64,000 nt of DNA from Acidobacteriota bacterium (lineage in GTDB: Bacteria; Acidobacteriota; UBA6911; RPQK01; JAJDTT01). The position numbers and the translations under genes are program-made. The notes beneath the pieces were generated by a model. It saw only the letters and a program-made list of their open reading frames with translations. It was not told the origin of the DNA and did no database searches. Positions 41,674 through 47,631 of the stretch are shown in pieces (position 1 is the first letter of the stretch; each line of letters begins with the position of its first letter). The stretch covers positions 2,528,001 to 2,592,000 of the forward strand of contig OZ253580.1 in NCBI GenBank assembly GCA_965263035.1. Direction: 5' to 3'.

Positions 41674-43169
41674 AGACTATGGATTCTCCGGAAAACAGAT
41701 TGCTGGCCTCCCGCCGCGACTTCCTCACTACTTCGGCCAGCGGCCTCGGGACCGCGGCCCTGGCCTCCGTGCTGGCGGGCGAAGGGCTGCTCCAGGCGAA
41801 GCCCGACGCGGGCATCACCAACCCTCTCTTCCCCAGGCAACCCCATTTCGCGCCCACGGCCAAGTCCTGCATCTTCCTCTTCATGGCGGGCGCGCCCAGC
41901 CAGTTGGACCTCTTCGACCCCAAGCCCAAGCTCATGAAGTTGGACGGACAGCCCATGCCCGAGTCGCTGCTGGAGAAGGTGAGATTCGCCTTCATCCGCA
42001 AGGAGACAGCGGTCCTGAAGGGTTCCGGGGTCCGGTTTCGGAAGCGGGGCGAGTGCGGGATGGAGATCTCCGACCTGCTGCCCCACATCGCCGGCTGCGC
42101 CGACGATATCGCCCTGATCCGGTCCCTCCACACCGACACCTTCAACCACCATCCGGGCCAGCTCATGATGAACACGGGTGTGCCCACCTTCGGCCGGCCC
42201 TCCATGGGATCCTGGATCAATTACGGACTCGGCAGCGAGTCGGAGAACCTGCCCGGGTACGTGGTGCTCACGGCCGGCCGGGGAACCAGCGGCGGCGCTT
42301 CCAACTGGACCAGCGGATTCCTGTCCACCAACTACCAGGGCGTATTGTTTCGAAACCAGGGCGACCCGGTTCTGAACCTGACCAATCCGGCAGGACTCCC
42401 GCACGAGTGCCAGCGTCTGGGACTGGACCGGCTCCGGCAGCTCAACCAGGAGCGCTACCAGCAAACCCGGGATCCCGAGATCCATTCCCGGATCGCATCC
42501 TACGAGTTGGCCTTCCGGATGCAGTCCTCGGCGCCCGAGCTCATCGATCTCGGCGGCGAGAGCGAAAAGACGCTGGAGATGTACGGCGTGAATCGGACCG
42601 AGGAGGAATGGAAGGACAAGCCCAACCGTGGCTACCGGTCGGGAGTCTTCTCCACCTATGCTCGTAACTGCCTGCTGGCCCGGCGCCTGGTGGAGCGGGG
42701 TGTCCGCTTCGTCAACATCTATCATGCTTCCTGGGACCACCACAGCAACCTGGAAACCGGACTGGGTTTCAACTGCATGATGTGCGATCAGCCGGTGGCG
42801 GCCCTCCTGAAGGATCTCAAGCAGAGAGGGCTGCTGGACGAGACCCTGGTGATCTGGGGTGGGGAGTTCGGCCGGACTCCTCTGGGTGAGAACCGCGTGG
42901 GCCGGGAGCCGAACACGGGCCGGGATCACCATCCCTTCGCCTTCTCCATGTTCATGGCCGGGGGAGGCATCCGAGGGGGACAGGTGCTGGGCCGGACCGA
43001 CGACATCGGATGGAACCCGGTCGAGGACCCGATTCACATCAACGACCTCCACGCCACCATCCTGCATCTGTTCGGGTTGGATCACGTCCGCCTCACCCAT
43101 CGCTTCCAGGGCCGCGACTTCCGGCTGACCGACGTGGGGGGCACGGTGGTTGCGAAACTGCTGGCATGA
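41670..43169 (+). CDS. DUF1501 domain protein (Tat signal)
   Basis: SRRDFL, FMAGAPSQLDLFDPKP, WDHH, GEFGRTP, GRDHHP. Confidence 0.92.
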   Translation: MKTMDSPENRLLASRRDFLTTSASGLGTAALASVLAGEGLLQAKPDAGITNPLFPRQPHFAPTAKSCIFLFMAGAPSQLDLFDPKPKLMKLDGQPMPESLLEKVRFAFIRKETAVLKGSGVRFRKRGECGMEISDLLPHIAGCADDIALIRSLHTDTFNHHPGQLMMNTGVPTFGRPSMGSWINYGLGSESENLPGYVVLTAGRGTSGGASNWTSGFLSTNYQGVLFRNQGDPVLNLTNPAGLPHECQRLGLDRLRQLNQERYQQTRDPEIHSRIASYELAFRMQSSAPELIDLGGESEKTLEMYGVNRTEEEWKDKPNRGYRSGVFSTYARNCLLARRLVERGVRFVNIYHASWDHHSNLETGLGFNCMMCDQPVAALLKDLKQRGLLDETLVIWGGEFGRTPLGENRVGREPNTGRDHHPFAFSMFMAGGGIRGGQVLGRTDDIGWNPVEDPIHINDLHATILHLFGLDHVRLTHRFQGRDFRLTDVGGTVVAKLLA

Positions 43170-44794
43170 GCTTCCGTTTCCGCCGCCGTCTCCTGGCTCC
43201 CGCCGCCGCCGGTGCCGTTTTCCTGCTGTCGGGTTGCGCCGCGGAGGAGGAACCTGAGGCAAGGCCCGCCGGGAAGTACCGATTCATCCTCTCCAACGAC
43301 GGGGGATCAGTGGCGGGTCCCGTGCTGGAAGCTCCCATCGGAGTGGAAGGCCTGGTCAAGCTGGCTATAGAACCTCTCCGGGACACCCAGATCAACACCC
43401 TGTTCTGGCAATTGGGAACCGACCCCTACCTGGGGTCCCCGTCCCACCGGCTCTCGGACTACTACTCGCACCGGACGGAGGTGGGCCCCATCTGGGGGAC
43501 GGAGAACCCTTCCTTTCAGAGCGCCGGGCTCTGGCGCATCCGGGAGAACGCGAAACGGTTGATGGAGGCCGGAACCGACCCCGTCGCCGTGGTGGTGGAG
43601 CATGGGCACCGGGCCGGCCTGGAGGTCTTCGTCTGCATGCGGGTCAACGACATCCACGACACCCGTCTGGAGGGTGGGGTGGAGGACCCTCTCATGTCGC
43701 CCGTCAAGAAGCGGCATCCCGACTGGCTCCTGGGCGAAGAAGGCATCCGCAGGACGGCTTACAACTTCGCTCTGCCCCAGGTCCGGGAGTACAAGCTGGC
43801 CCTGGCCCGGGAAGCCATCGAGAACTACGACCTGGACGGTCTGGACTGGGACTTCTGCCGTCACCCCTTCCTCTTTCCCCAGGGGAGCGAAGCGGAGGGC
43901 GCGCCCCTTATGACCGAGCTGCTGGGTGAAATCCGGCGGGCGCTGGACGAGAAAGGGGAGCGGGTGGGCCGCCGGCTCTCCCTATCGGTGAGGGTGCCCC
44001 GCTCTCTGGACGAGGCCCTGGCGCAGGGAATGGACGTGAGGAGTTGGCTCTCGAAGGGGCTGCTGGACATCCTCATCGTCGGCTACCAGCCGGGGAACAA
44101 GCATCGTCTCCCAGTAGAGGAGTACGTGGAGGCGGCTCGGGGAACCCGCACCCGGATCGTGGCCCAGGGCCTGGGGCTCTTCCAGCAGCCCAGACCCCTC
44201 TCGGCCAAGCTCATCTGGAACGAGAAGGACTACTACACGGCCGAGATGTGCCGCGCCGTGGCCGCGGCCCACTACCGGGCCGGCGCCCAGGGGATCTTCG
44301 TGTTCAACAACCATTACCTGCAGGTGGTTCGGGATCGGCAATACGACCGCCTCCCCTGGAAGGAATTGGGGGATCCCCAGGTCATCGCCCGCAAGGACAA
44401 GCACTACCTGGCGGATCAGCAGAAGTGGGGAGCCGGCCGGCTGCCGCTGGACCTGGCGAAGGTGGGAGAAGAGGTGGAAGTCTCGCTGGACGTGGCGGAC
44501 GACTTGGAAGCGGCCAGCCGGGAAGGCGTCCTGAAATCGGCGACGCTCCGTCTTCTGGTGGACCAACTGACCCCTCAGGACCGGCTGGAGGTCACCCTGA
44601 ATGGCCGCCCCATCGGGGATCCCGACACGCAACACGTCTTTTTCAACGAGACCTGGCTCGAGTTCGCAGCGGGTCCTCCCCAGCTCAAGCAGGGCTGGAA
44701 CCGGATCGGTACCGCAGTCCGGGCCCGCAATCCCCAGATCACCAGCCCCCTCTCCCTCAAGAGCGTCGAGATTCTGGTGAAATACACGGAGTGA
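43166..44794 (+). CDS. glycoside hydrolase-like (GHL10-type TIM barrel) lipoprotein
   Basis: RRRLL...LLSGC signal; MRVNDIH, HPDWLL, YNFALPQVR, YDLDGLDWDFCRH; ATGA overlap with the DUF1501 gene. Confidence 0.75.
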   Translation: MSFRFRRRLLAPAAAGAVFLLSGCAAEEEPEARPAGKYRFILSNDGGSVAGPVLEAPIGVEGLVKLAIEPLRDTQINTLFWQLGTDPYLGSPSHRLSDYYSHRTEVGPIWGTENPSFQSAGLWRIRENAKRLMEAGTDPVAVVVEHGHRAGLEVFVCMRVNDIHDTRLEGGVEDPLMSPVKKRHPDWLLGEEGIRRTAYNFALPQVREYKLALAREAIENYDLDGLDWDFCRHPFLFPQGSEAEGAPLMTELLGEIRRALDEKGERVGRRLSLSVRVPRSLDEALAQGMDVRSWLSKGLLDILIVGYQPGNKHRLPVEEYVEAARGTRTRIVAQGLGLFQQPRPLSAKLIWNEKDYYTAEMCRAVAAAHYRAGAQGIFVFNNHYLQVVRDRQYDRLPWKELGDPQVIARKDKHYLADQQKWGAGRLPLDLAKVGEEVEVSLDVADDLEAASREGVLKSATLRLLVDQLTPQDRLEVTLNGRPIGDPDTQHVFFNETWLEFAAGPPQLKQGWNRIGTAVRARNPQITSPLSLKSVEILVKYTE

Positions 44795-44795
44795 G

Positions 44796-46643
44796 ATCGG
44801 GTCGAGTGCAGGGGATTGCGCCCCTGCACCCTCCCACACCACCGGACGTACCGTTTTCAGTATCCGGCGGTTGGAGTCACCCGAGGTCCGATGGAATGAG
44901 GAACCCATAGCGGCGCAGACGGCGGTTGCTCAGGGCCGTGTGCAGCGCTGAGTGCCGGGCGATTCGCCAGCTTCCTCGACTGCTGTGGGCCACTCGAAGC
45001 AGCGGCTCACGCACCCCCAGAGACCGCAGTCGCCGGAGACGCCCTCGCCAACCATGCCAGCGCAACCAGAAGCATTTGCGCATGTGGCGCCGGATCCAGC
45101 CTTCCAACCTCCAGACCGGACGCCGCCATTCCGCCAGCCGGTAGTATCCCCACCAGCCTCGGATGTGCTGCCGCCATTGGTCTCTCAGTCCCAGGCTGCT
45201 GAGGTTCTGTCGGGCGTCCCAGAGTTGGCGCACCCGTAACTTCAGCCGCTTCAGGCTCTCCGGGGCCACTTCGATCTGCCCCTTCCGGGTGATCCGGAAC
45301 CCCAGGAGCTTCCGCTCCCAGGGCCGGCCCACTCCAGTCTTGCGCGCGTTCACCTTCAACCGCAGATGCTTCGCGATCCACTGCGGCAGGTTCCGGACCA
45401 CTCGATCCGCCGCGGTCGCTCCCCCTACGTAGACGTTACAGTCGTCCGCGTAGCGTACGAAGCAGTACCCGCGTCTCTCCAGTTCTTTGTCCAGCGGGTC
45501 CAGGTAGAGGTTCGCCAGCAGCGGGGAGAGCGGTCCGCCTTGCGGCGTCCCCTCCCGGGCTCCCACCACCACGCCTTCCACCAGAACCCCGCTGCGCAGG
45601 TACCGGCCAATCAGTTTCAGCACCCGTTTGTCCCGGATGACGGCCCCGATTCGCCGCATCATGATGTCGTGATGCACCCGGTCAAAGAACTTCTCGATGT
45701 CCAGATCGACGACCCAGTCCCGGCCTCCCCGGACCACGTACTCCCGTGCCGCTCTCACGGCATCGTGAGTGCTGCGTCCCGGTCGGAACCCGTAGCTGTG
45801 CTCGCTGAACCCCGGTTCGAAGATCCGCCCCAGCTCCTGCAACAGCAGTTGCTGGATGAATCGATCCAGCACCGTGGGGATCCCCAGGCAGCGGACCCCA
45901 CCGTTCGGTTTCGGGATTTCCACCCGCCTCACTGGGGTCACCGCGTAGGTCCCGTCCAGCAACTTGCCACGGATTCGCGGCCAGTGCTTCTGAAGGTGTC
46001 CCTCCAGTTCGGTGGTCTTCATGCCGTCCATCCCCGGCGCCCCCCGGTTGCGGAGTACCGCTCCCAAGGCCGCCCCGTAGTTGTCCGCCGAGACCACCTG
46101 TTCCATCAGCGACTCGTACCTCTCCCTTCTTTCCGGGTCTTCGCCGCCACCGAGACTCGATCTCCGCCCTTCCGGCTTGACGGGTTCCACCCTTGGGCCT
46201 TCCGGACCCGGGCCAGAGGATCTCTCCCCGGCTCCCGTCTTCGGAGTTCTTGGCGCCTCCATTGGCGAGTCCTCCATAAGGTCGGTACGACTCCTTCGGT
46301 CCTTCGCTCCACCGGCTCTACCCGGCTTCTTCGCTACTACGACCTCTGCTGACTTCTCAAGGGCTCTCACCCTTGAGATCTCCCCGAGTAAGGTGCTGCA
46401 TCTTTCCCCCCGGGCCGCCCGGCTCTACCTGGTACGTCTGGATGGGGTTCGGGTTTCGCTGTTGCTCGCCAGCTCACCGCCCGCACCCGGCCTCGCTGCC
46501 GGTTCGTGTTCCTGCGGTCGTGGGTTTGCCTTCCGCTTCCTTCAGCTTCACCTCGCGGCTACGCCTTGCGGTTCGGCTAGGGTTGGTCCCATCACCTCCC
46601 TTGGGATCTTTCATCCCTTAGATACAGCCCATGTCGGGCGCAC
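44796..46643 (-). mobile_element. complete group II intron, class IIC (1848 nt), inserted in a REP hairpin
   Basis: 5' end GTGCGCCCGACATGGG at 46643; AAGTCAGCAGAGGTCGTAGTAG segment; short domain V AACCGCCGGATAC...GTACGTCCGGTGGTG with CGC triad; domain VI ending CCCGAT at 44796. Confidence 0.93.
44877..46262 (-). CDS. ltrA: group II intron reverse transcriptase/maturase (class C, no endonuclease domain)
   Basis: APGMDG, LGIPTVLDR, SYGFRPGRS, DIEKFFD, GTPQGGPLSPLLAN, RYADD, X domain; GGAGG RBS before ATG 46262. Confidence 0.95.
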   Translation of the reverse strand: MEAPRTPKTGAGERSSGPGPEGPRVEPVKPEGRRSSLGGGEDPERRERYESLMEQVVSADNYGAALGAVLRNRGAPGMDGMKTTELEGHLQKHWPRIRGKLLDGTYAVTPVRRVEIPKPNGGVRCLGIPTVLDRFIQQLLLQELGRIFEPGFSEHSYGFRPGRSTHDAVRAAREYVVRGGRDWVVDLDIEKFFDRVHHDIMMRRIGAVIRDKRVLKLIGRYLRSGVLVEGVVVGAREGTPQGGPLSPLLANLYLDPLDKELERRGYCFVRYADDCNVYVGGATAADRVVRNLPQWIAKHLRLKVNARKTGVGRPWERKLLGFRITRKGQIEVAPESLKRLKLRVRQLWDARQNLSSLGLRDQWRQHIRGWWGYYRLAEWRRPVWRLEGWIRRHMRKCFWLRWHGWRGRLRRLRSLGVREPLLRVAHSSRGSWRIARHSALHTALSNRRLRRYGFLIPSDLG

Positions 46644-46835
46644 GAGCGGCGGCTTTCTTGCCGCCGACAGGGGGGCAGGGGGGACGGAGTCCCCACTTTA
46701 CACTTTCACCCCTCTACACTTCCCGGCCACCGAATCGCATAGCGGCAATGAAGAGCAGGCGGCAAGAAAGTCGCCTGGCCCAGTGGGCGACAAGAAAGTC
46801 GCCCCTCCTGGCGATTAGAAATCGCCCCTCCTACG
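46644..46835. repeat. REP-like hairpin cluster forming the intron's 5' exon
   Basis: GAGCGGCGGCTTTCTTGCCGCC at 46644 and further copies at 46759-46833. Confidence 0.85.
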
Positions 46836-47631
46836 ACCGCGCGTCGGAGGCGTCGATCCTCTCGATCCCTGAAGCGTGGGTCTTCACGGCTTCCAGCACC
46901 AAGGTGCGGCCCGCCAGCAGATCCAGGCTGTGCATCGCCCGGCGTACGTCCTTGTTGGCCTCCCGCTGGCGGGGATCGGTCTCCTTGCGCATGGTCCGGA
47001 TGGAGTAGAGCCGATGGAAGGGATAGAAGAGGAGCAGCGGCCAGCAGGAGCGGCGCCAGAGGTCGGTGGTGGCTTGAGTGATCCGGAAGCCGCTGCTGTG
47101 GAGCGCGTACCGGATCTGGTAGTAGGTCATGGGGTTGATGTGGTCGAACACGGGAGTGTGGGCGAACTCGTTCAGGGGACGGGGACAGAGAGAATAGAAC
47201 CCGGTCAGAAAGTACTTCAGCCTCGAAGCCGAATTCAGGATGTTGGGAGTCGAAAGGATGAGCCTGCCCTGCCACTTGAGGATCCGGTGGCATTCCCGGA
47301 TGAAACGGAAGGGGTGCTCCAAATGCTCGATGCCTTCCAGACAGACGACGTAGTCGAACGACTCATCCGGCAAGTCCAGGGGGCGGTTCATGTCCAAACC
47401 GAGACATTCCACGCCCTCGCACTTGAAGAAGCCCGGGTCCAGGTCCGCCGCCACCGTCTGGAAACCCATTTCTCGCAGGCAGTGGGAGATTCCTCCCTCG
47501 CCTGAGGGAATGTCCAGGATCCTGCCCCTGGGCAAGTCTTCCATGAGATCCAGGACCTTGAAGAAGGTCCGTTCGTGGGCAATGACCTGAAAGCCCTCGG
47601 GTTTCTTCCGAGCTCGACTCACCGATCCCAT
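46831..47631 (-). CDS. class I SAM-dependent methyltransferase
   Basis: ILDIPSGEG, SFDYVVCLEGIEHL, LILSTPN. Confidence 0.9.
   Translation of the reverse strand: MGSVSRARKKPEGFQVIAHERTFFKVLDLMEDLPRGRILDIPSGEGGISHCLREMGFQTVAADLDPGFFKCEGVECLGLDMNRPLDLPDESFDYVVCLEGIEHLEHPFRFIRECHRILKWQGRLILSTPNILNSASRLKYFLTGFYSLCPRPLNEFAHTPVFDHINPMTYYQIRYALHSSGFRITQATTDLWRRSCWPLLLFYPFHRLYSIRTMRKETDPRQREANKDVRRAMHSLDLLAGRTLVLEAVKTHASGIERIDASDARS

Follow-up and report, generated by a model that had tools for sequence, protein, structure and literature searches.

A class C group II intron associated with REP-type hairpin repeats in an Acidobacteriota genome

The present study concerns a 64,000-nt stretch of the genome of an Acidobacteriota bacterium (contig OZ253580.1, positions 2,528,001 to 2,592,000; hereafter the window), in which a class C (IIC) group II intron of 1848 nt occupies the minus strand from 46643 to 44796 and follows, after the four bases GCTC, a hairpin of the repetitive extragenic palindrome (REP) type. 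The question raised by this locus is whether the intron came to lie behind a REP by accident or whether the REP family serves as its homing target, as an earlier note made from the letters of the window had proposed. We consider it highly probable that the element is a class C retroelement that uses this abundant hairpin family as its landing site. We also regard as somewhat probable a broader picture, in which the intron belongs to a monophyletic class C sublineage that spans at least four phyla and lives on REP-type repeats, its 4-nt exon-binding site 1 (EBS1) being retuned in each host, and in which it has in this genome also given rise to a retroelement lacking an open reading frame (ORF), similar to a short interspersed nuclear element (SINE), that outnumbers its parent by 22 to 2.

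The intron and its copies in the host genome

On the minus strand, the 5' junction reads ...GGCGGCAAGAAAGCCGCC-GCTC|GTGCGCCCGAC at 46644|46643 and the 3' junction ...CTCGACCCGAT|CTCACTCC at 44796|44795. Regarding the class of the element, the intron ORF matched only RVT_1 (3.7e-38) and GIIM (4.3e-7) in Pfam and is without an endonuclease domain; the part that it shares with the reverse transcriptases (RTs) of other IIC introns begins near 46133, and its best solved relative is the GsI-IIC RT (6AR1, E 2.5e-134), followed by a group II RT/maturase entry (7UIM, E 1.9e-102). The AGGAA bulge motif CUGAAGGAAGC aligned within the RF02001 match, and domains V and VI folded much better than shuffled sequences (z -6.2). 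The marks of class C given by Toor (2006; PMC1702495) are a CGC triad in domain V, an AGGAA bulge in domain I and a short EBS1. The window element accordingly combines an RT without an endonuclease domain, the CGC and AGGAA motifs, and a 4-bp pairing between EBS1 and intron-binding site 1 (IBS1) next to a stem-loop in the 5' exon.

The hairpin in the 5' exon is one of many. Within the window, GGCGGCAAGAAAGCCGCC had 19 matches with at most three mismatches (0.09 expected; all of 100 shuffles gave fewer), and in the whole genome, a single contig of 6.198 Mb with 62% G+C, GGCGRCAAGAAAGYCGCC was matched 274 times with at most two mismatches, in both orientations. Since 67 of the gaps between neighbours measure exactly 28 nt, these units form tandem arrays, and we call them REPs because they are short palindromes present in hundreds of copies, in arrays and in both orientations. 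As single-stranded DNA (ssDNA), the target hairpin folds into a 7-bp stem, one pair of which is contributed by the adjacent C and G (-9.9 kcal/mol, z -2.9). The tails of the 274 units are most often GCTC (135), followed by CCTC (48), TGTC (19) and others. Behind the empty GCTC REPs, the next base is C in 115 of 117 cases, as is the first base of the 3' exon in the window, and the intron thus sits exactly between GCTC and the C of the normal tail.

Genome-wide, the 5' end and the 3' end of the intron were each found 24 times; they belong to two full-length copies with an RT, 19 intact ORF-less copies of 630-632 nt (minis), and three minis broken by insertions. The two full-length copies differ at six positions, none of them in the conserved part of the RT, and among the 19 intact minis there are 14 different sequences (median pairwise identity 97.8%). 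The minis carry CGAGGCTC-GAAA-GAGCCTCG in place of the ORF and retain domains I-III, V and VI, and the first 120 nt are the same as in the full-length copies in 22 of the 24 copies.

The insertion sites of these copies follow a common rule. In all 24, the 5' exon is a hairpin followed by GCTC, with the hairpin ending 4 nt before the site, and the 3' exon begins with C in 23. The class C habit of insertion at a terminator (a hairpin with a T-run) or an attC site is not seen in any of them, as the tail is GCTC throughout; such insertion is customary in the class and no part of its structural definition. The stems vary and yet pair (GGCGGC/GCCGCC, GGCGAC/GTCGCC, GGGGG/CCCCC, GGGGAC/GTCCCC, GGCCATC/GATGGCC). 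The main REP pattern accounts for 18 targets and close REP variants for two (GGCGGC-TGGAAA-CCGCC and GACGAT-AAGAAA-GTCGCC); four targets belong to neither group and are hairpins in which the sequence of the stem changes while pairing stays (GGGGG-TTGAAAA-CCCCC, GGGGG-TTGCAAA-CCCCC, GGGGAC-AAGGAT-GTCCCC and GGCCATC-AGGTC-GATGGCC). Occupancy depends on the tail: 18 of the 135 REPs with GCTC carry an intron, as against none of the 139 with other tails (Fisher p 1.6e-6).

The three interrupted minis lie at C1:3067627 (plus), 3925592 (minus) and 5180457 (plus). Two of them share an identical insertion sequence (IS) of 1782 bp, in opposite orientations and at different positions, which encodes a 388-aa rve-type transposase-like ORF and was judged IS3-like by eye only. 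The third carries a 4.7-kb insert with ORFs that were judged, by eye only, to be a large serine recombinase and IS21-like; the sole match inside this insert was a weak one to Bac_DnaA. ORF-less forms also occur in relatives (L033 in G003, L034 in G008, L032 in G001). The mini of G008 has the same deletion junction as those of the present genome (G000), with compensatory changes in the capping hairpin, the mini of G003 has a different junction, which points to an independent loss of the ORF, and G001 showed a single mini-sized copy and no full-length copy when a mini was used as the query.

The features of the window locus are listed in Table 1. A plus-strand ORF (43010..44794, GHL10-like protein) stops with TGA at 44792-44794, so that exactly one base (44795) lies between this opposite-strand stop and the intron. 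The co-oriented gene upstream of the intron encodes a methyltransferase (46831..47631, minus). The opposite REP pair listed in the table and the target REP form an inverted arrangement resembling a REPIN (REP doublet forming a hairpin).

Table 1. Features of the intron locus, with positions in the window
Feature	Position	Strand	Evidence
Full-length class C group II intron, GTGCG...CCCGAT	44796..46643	-	sequence; Rfam D1D4-3 and D1D4-1; same ends in 24 genomic copies
REP hairpin of the 5' exon, GGCGGC-AAGAAA-GCCGCC	46648..46665	-	sequence; repeat search; ssDNA fold
IBS1 GCTC, final 4 nt of the 5' exon	46644..46647	-	invariant in 24/24 copies; covaries with EBS1 in relatives
EBS1 GAGC, intron positions 177-180, loop of stem-loop 46458-46473	46464..46467	-	Rfam alignment; covariation
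Domain I core including the class C AGGAA bulge motif (CTGAAGGAAGC)	46395..46562	-	Rfam group-II-D1D4-3 RF02001, 81.4 bits, E 1.1e-14
Stretch linking domain I core to domain IV	46299..46392	-	Rfam group-II-D1D4-1 RF01998, 44 bits
Intron ORF in domain IV, longest frame 497 aa, RT and maturase	44877..46370	-	ORF list; Pfam
Domain V, basal stem CGC instead of AGC (CCGCCGG)	44838..44871	-	fold, z -6.2
Domain VI with bulged GA, seven bases from the intron end; candidate branch-point A at 44802	44798..44836	-	fold
First 3' exon base C, putative IBS3	44795..44795	-	C in 23/24 copies and after 115/117 empty GCTC REPs
Two REP copies, orientation opposite to the target, upstream of it	46758..46803	+	repeat search; long-range pairing in chance alignment
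Second hairpin GGGGAC-TCC-GTCCCC of the longer composite repeat ending in the target REP	46680..46694	-	37 genomic matches; fold

Beside the orthologous GHL10 gene, the intron is absent in G001, G002, G003 and G005, and G004 has a full-length intron located 3 nt further from the stop. The REP content after this gene varies among the species G001-G005 (L141-L145), with G001 having a GGCGCGT-loop-ACGCCGC family, which shows a fast turnover of REP families. Because of these differences in REP content between the species, an exact empty-site match was not obtained at this site in G001, G002, G003 and G005. Weak matches to Y1_Tnp (PF01797; 36 and 39 bits) were found at C1:2482924-2483100 (minus) and 3478135-3478365 (plus); REPs lie approximately 0.8 kb to one side and 2 kb to the other of the former weak match, which may be the REP-associated tyrosine transposase (RAYT) of this family.

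Relatives, their exon tails and the Acido-Lenti-1 motif

The link between the intron and the tail of its target appears to be a single loop. The stem-loop GCTG-GCGAGCAA-CAGC at 46473-46458 is the terminal hairpin of the Rfam group-II-D1D4-3 match, and covariation between its loop GAGC (46467-46464) and the exon tail identifies this loop as EBS1. Introns of genomes of the same genus are 87-92% identical; among them, CCTC exons go with the loop GCGAGGAA (GAGG) in G003 (three of six copies aligned), G008 and G001, and GCTC exons go with the loop GCGAGCAA (GAGC) in the present genome and G004, as well as in G031 from the same order. In the rest of the intron, G003 resembles the present genome (GTGCG start) and G004 resembles G008 (GTGTG start). 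The switch in EBS1 is discordant with this division, which indicates either repeated joint changes of loop and tail or their exchange as a unit. In the nearest relative outside the genus (L061 / L036, G031:C112), whose 5' splice site is ambiguous, GCGTG stands where a 5' end of the form GTGYG is expected, behind a GGCCCA hairpin arm followed by GGCTC.

The same pairing was examined across the 80 loci of the nearest RT relatives, namely, the best 80 of 585, with contigs from one genome per species. Domain I was located by a profile (72 hits) and the loop was read from the alignment, which left 48 non-redundant loci with a defined boundary. The loop and the last four exon bases formed four of four pairs in 25 loci, three in 21 and two in 2, giving a mean of 3.48 pairs, whereas exons shuffled among loci gave 2.26 +/- 0.11 and none of 5000 shuffles reached 3.48. 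Shuffling overstates the independence of the loci, since kin share history; there are still 32 different combinations of tail and loop among the 48. The first base of the 3' exon is C in nearly all members of the clade and is too invariant for EBS3 to be located by covariation.

In an RT tree of 79 sequences from the same set (FastTree, midpoint-rooted), the window intron falls into a clade of 29 tips with a local support of 1.0, the record titles of which name Acidobacteriota, Bryobacterales, Verrucomicrobiota, Lentisphaerae, Methylobacter and others. T-rich 5' exon ends, defined by at least three T among the six final exon bases, occur in none of the 25 known sites of this clade and in 22 of the 24 known sites among the other 50 tips, in which they represent the classic hairpin with a T-run. 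We then have, as far as can be judged from these sequences, a class C sublineage in Acidobacteriota, Verrucomicrobiota, Lentisphaerae and Gammaproteobacteria whose EBS1 appears to match the tail of a hairpin repeat of the host and not the T-run of a terminator.

The exon hairpin with its tail was searched for, allowing three mismatches, in four genomes of the clade outside the genus, with reversed patterns giving 0-1 matches as controls. It belonged to a multi-copy repeat family in all four: 54 matches with 10 intron 5' ends in G041 (Bryobacterales), 110 with 8 in G042 (Methylobacter marinus A45), often as inverted pairs approximately 40-55 nt apart, 46 with 3 in G043 (Luteolibacter sp.), and 24 with 23 in G044 (Bryobacterales); by these numbers of intron 5' ends, most members of the repeat families are empty. 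Flanks were available for 40 of the 44 copies, and 32 of these have, upstream of the intron, a perfect stem of 5 bp or more whose end is 2-6 nt away from the insertion site. Copies sharing a hairpin family number 7 of 9 in G041, 4 and 2 of 8 in G042, 2 of 3 in G043, and 5, 2, 2 and 2 of 20 in G044. In G044, the EBS1 variants TAGG, TGGC and TAGC occur with the tails CCTA, GCCA and GCTA.

The observation in the earlier note and the core of its interpretation are borne out by these results. It had described a class C intron that lies one nucleotide past the stop of an opposite-strand gene, behind a REP hairpin plus GCTC, and whose removal restores the usual REP tail, and the junctions, the RT and the 115 empty REPs that continue with C agree with this. 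Its assignment of the GAGC loop in the stem-loop 46458-46473 to EBS1 is strengthened by the position of this loop in domain I, by the exchange of GAGG with CCTC and of GAGC with GCTC, and by at least three of four pairs in 46 of the 48 loci. The expectation that other copies and homologues would follow such hairpins holds for all 24 copies in this genome and for relatives in four others, as described above.

The Acido-Lenti-1 motif (RF01687) is said to lie sometimes near group II introns, and the earlier note had raised the idea that the REPs of the window are this motif. In the main text of the paper that describes it, Acido-Lenti-1 appears only as an entry of Table 1 (PMC2864571). The idea fails for the present genome: no RF01687 match was found among the 150 of 1095 candidates that were scored, none appeared at E <=10 in the window segment 46600-46900, and none reached the gathering score (37 bits) in the whole window, and we rejected the identity of these REPs with Acido-Lenti-1 on these grounds. 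It has substance elsewhere. In G044, the repeat at the intron L066, whose RT is 63% identical to that of the window, is Acido-Lenti-1, with four copies in three stretches (40.4, 38.1, 38.1 and 37.0 bits). The 5' exon of L066 ends in ...CCCACGACTGGCGTCGTGGGCTA, namely, hairpin 1 plus CUA, at model position 23, with TAGC as EBS1; its 3' exon CTTTCCATCGCCCCGTACCGGGGCTTGG... is identical over 60 nt to the sequence after GGGCTA in two uninterrupted copies, which makes an exact pair of filled and empty sites from G044. A second copy in this genome (L232) follows a variant hairpin that scores 37.0 bits in L218. On a Prosthecobacter contig (L068), an Acido-Lenti-1 copy lies approximately 280 nt upstream of an intron of the 29-tip clade, and three tandem units of approximately 62 nt (L068:1690-1910) are located between this copy and the target hairpin of the intron.

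Among 151 sampled Acidobacteriota genomes, 38 contain many copies that fit the Acido-Lenti-1 model, 24 of these genomes with matches over the cut-off; at most 37 candidates per genome were scored, so that the counts are at least 37 in two genomes, and the tally includes one G016 match that is flagged as unpublished. The copies are often arranged in tandem or as inverted pairs 100-150 nt apart, e.g., G097:C63:22320-22520 and G139:C159:36142-36342. This multi-copy layout suggests that Acido-Lenti-1 is REP-like (REPIN-like) and questions its listing as a small RNA gene. In 15 genomes rich in the motif, the intron 5' pattern (two mismatches allowed) was found at the control level, and the class C introns found in four genomes of this kind follow T-tailed hairpins; we accordingly rejected Acido-Lenti-1 as a general intron target.

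Proposed mechanism of insertion and rival explanations

The orientation of the copies relative to replication provides a further clue. The dnaA gene at 2.872 Mb coincides with the minimum of the cumulative GC skew (2.86 Mb), the maximum of which is at 5.84 Mb. The sense strand lies on the lagging-strand template in 20 of the 24 introns versus 41 of the 117 empty GCTC REPs (Fisher p 2e-5), which suggests ssDNA at the replication fork as the substrate. The accessible text of Miura (2022; PMC8919778), citing Robart 2007, reports a lagging-strand bias for introns without an endonuclease. In the mechanism that we propose, the excised intron RNA together with the RT/maturase would recognise the DNA hairpin, and the 4-nt EBS1 loop GAGC would pair with the GCTC behind it; reverse splicing into ssDNA would occur between GCTC and the next C, followed by copying into DNA that may be primed at the fork, with the lagging-strand template exposed at replication forks as the preferred strand. 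The ORF-deleted derivative, which carries a GAAA-capped hairpin in place of the ORF, most likely receives its protein in trans from the two copies that encode the RT and would in this manner have spread to at least 22 sites.

A different account would be that the intron is an ordinary class C intron for which any stable DNA hairpin followed by GCTC-C suffices, and that REPs dominate as the main non-gene sites in which insertions survive. We consider this possible but rather unlikely; it departs from the use of REPs as a landing site in degree and not in mechanism. It gains from the mini at C1:436206-436835 (minus, L015), which lies in GGCCATC-AGGTC-GATGGCC plus GCTC, antisense within the 3' end of a zinc-dependent alcohol dehydrogenase gene (ADH_N 6.4e-28, ADH_zinc_N 7.7e-19), the last approximately 48 codons of which it replaces, and from the three copies in the rarer GGGGG-loop-CCCCC and GGGGAC-AAGGAT-GTCCCC hairpins; moreover, a hairpin plus 3-4 bp is the rule of the class in the parts of Toor (2006; PMC1702495) and Gomes (2025; PMC12584367) that were accessible. 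It does not readily account for an EBS1 that varies by host and matches the tail of the repeat family in each of five genomes, or for a clade of 29 tips wholly without T-rich tails. A count of perfect hairpins in the genome (stem of at least 6 bp, loop of 3-8 nt, GCTCC directly after) also speaks against it: 255 such sites are empty and 20 occupied, and those with an AAGAAA loop, as in the REPs, were used in 16 of 86 cases versus 4 of 189 for all others, including none of 50 with a GGA loop (p 4e-6).

If the REP hairpins were transcription terminators of the "I-shaped" type, which lack a U-tract, the intron would be a terminator-targeting member of class C, and the two descriptions of these hairpins may overlap. 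The position of the window copy downstream of the co-oriented methyltransferase gene and the known occurrence of class C introns after terminators, as stated in the available parts of Zimmerly and Semper (2015; PMC4424553) and Toor (2006; PMC1702495), are in line with this view, which we nevertheless find unlikely, and more so than the preceding one. The targets are a sequence family of 274 copies, often in 28-nt tandem arrays (67 gaps) and in both orientations; their tail is GCTCC without a T-run, and only 41 of the 117 empty targets are in the leading-strand sense. Duplication or transposition of DNA segments that contain both REP and intron, instead of retrohoming, is very improbable. A longer composite repeat (...AAGTGTAGAG-GTGGGGACTCCGTCCCCCC-TGCCCCCCT... 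at 46666-46740 of the window, minus, and at 37 genomic places), which ends in the target REP, is shared upstream by approximately 10-14 of the 24 copies, which speaks for such duplication, but at least 10 copies are without it, and it occurs free of the intron more often than with it (29 empty versus 10 occupied). The 3' flanks are unique right after the intron in most copies, with 3 of 24 running into a further REP unit, which argues against a spread by duplication of DNA segments, as do the precision of the insertions at GCTC|C and a replication-strand bias unlike that of empty REPs. GCTC REPs with the composite repeat upstream were occupied in 10 of 39 cases and those without it in 8 of 96 (p 0.012).

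Several observations weigh against the use of REPs as the landing site or limit its scope. The copy within the alcohol dehydrogenase gene implies that a REP as such is not required, and the earlier claim that the REP family is the homing target is upheld by the hairpin and GCTC in all 24 copies and by the 18 occupied sites among 135 versus none among 139, but not in the strict form that only a REP will serve. The excess of AAGAAA loops could reflect either extra recognition or the loss of harmful insertions within genes, and targeting and selection are inseparable in this comparison. In the four genomes outside the genus, 8 of the 40 copies with flanks had no perfect stem by the criterion given above, and an RT search in the genomes rich in Acido-Lenti-1 yielded five class C loci, the four with flanks all following T-tailed hairpins. 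The RT tree, being midpoint-rooted and drawn from the best 80 of 585 relatives, shows a clean split and no direction of change. The exon-exon joint 44795/46644 was not seen in contigs of three RNA-library runs and one other run over the window segment 44400-47000, although contigs cannot show such a joint reliably; where contigs had loose ends at the borders of the intron, these agreed with other copies of it. What the data demonstrate in terms of recognition is a hairpin, a 4-nt IBS1 and a C, and the use of REPs may reflect the abundance and harmlessness of these sites.

The summed contig depth of the ribozyme part (46140-46661) relative to the RT ORF (44922-46139) was approximately 100x in two RNA libraries and 20-30x in a run of unrecorded library type (runs X15, X16 and X1 in all). 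Since contig depth is no measure of expression, the higher depth of the part shared with the minis is only a hint of their transcription.

Comparison with known systems

The mechanism in the present case is that of class C itself; what is new is the class of target, the EBS1 matched to the host, the predominance of ORF-less copies by 22 to 2 and the connection with Acido-Lenti-1. In our literature search, which left most subscription papers outside its range, no REP-targeting intron lineage was found described, the only related item being the entry on 2 of 9 copies in Tobes and Pareja (2006). Three target habits of bacterial group II introns, i.e., homing sites, terminators and attC, are named in the consulted part of Zimmerly and Semper (2015; PMC4424553), and an introduction from 2025 still has IIC introns inserting after rho-independent terminators (PMC12584367, partial text). 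REP-type repeats recognised by a host-specific EBS1 would be a fourth.

Such a habit would show by what means a retroelement that recognises no more than 4 bp of sequence can locate harmless sites by the hundred where a genome is GC-rich and lacks U-tract terminators. It would also connect REPs with retroelements, both of which are large classes of bacterial "junk". The minis would provide a natural case of a non-autonomous bacterial retroelement, and the target rule, a hairpin plus 4 nt, suggests a simple means of reprogramming. Regarding Acido-Lenti-1, its multi-copy, often inverted-pair arrangement and its interruption by an intron in one genome offer a concrete reading for a motif without an assigned function. 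If this REP-like target reading is true, it would explain the reported proximity of the motif to group II introns.

Among the closest known systems are terminator-targeting class C introns such as B.h.I1 of Bacillus halodurans and GsI-IIC of Geobacillus stearothermophilus, with which the window intron shares an RT without an endonuclease domain, a small ribozyme, the CGC triad, the AGGAA bulge, a 4-bp EBS1/IBS1 pairing, a hairpin in place of IBS2 (EBS2 was not searched for separately) and a bias for the lagging-strand template. The difference lies in the target hairpins, which are high-copy repeats with a GC-rich GCTC tail and no T-run. The targets of class C have already been said to include "other inverted repeats" in the excerpt of Toor (2006; PMC1702495). 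Similar to the IIC-attC introns, the present lineage is a branch of class C that has exchanged terminators for a different DNA hairpin, likewise recurrent and structured; its target is an 18-nt perfect REP hairpin found throughout the chromosome and not the bulged attC of a cassette array. In G044, a sister intron inserted after position 23 of the Acido-Lenti-1 model, uninterrupted copies of which score 37-40.4 bits, whereas the REPs of the window and of its genome have no match to this model at the gathering score.

REPs also serve as harmless and abundant landing sites for REP-targeting insertion sequences and for a group II intron of Pseudomonas putida KT2440, which is associated with REPs in 2 of 9 copies according to the table of Tobes and Pareja (2006), the part of that paper available. 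In the present genome, 18 of 24 copies lie in the main REP family and at least two more in close variants, and, in contrast to the KT2440 intron, a pairing rule between EBS1 and the REP tail has been identified that covaries across hosts. ORF-less introns are described as rare in bacteria in the accessible part of Zimmerly and Semper (2015; PMC4424553). The minis resemble the ORF-less introns reported as mobilised in trans in Thermosynechococcus (Mohr, 2010) in being non-autonomous ribozymes beside a few RT-encoding relatives, and differ from them in belonging to class C, in their ratio of 22:2 and in the clean exchange of the ORF for a tetraloop hairpin.

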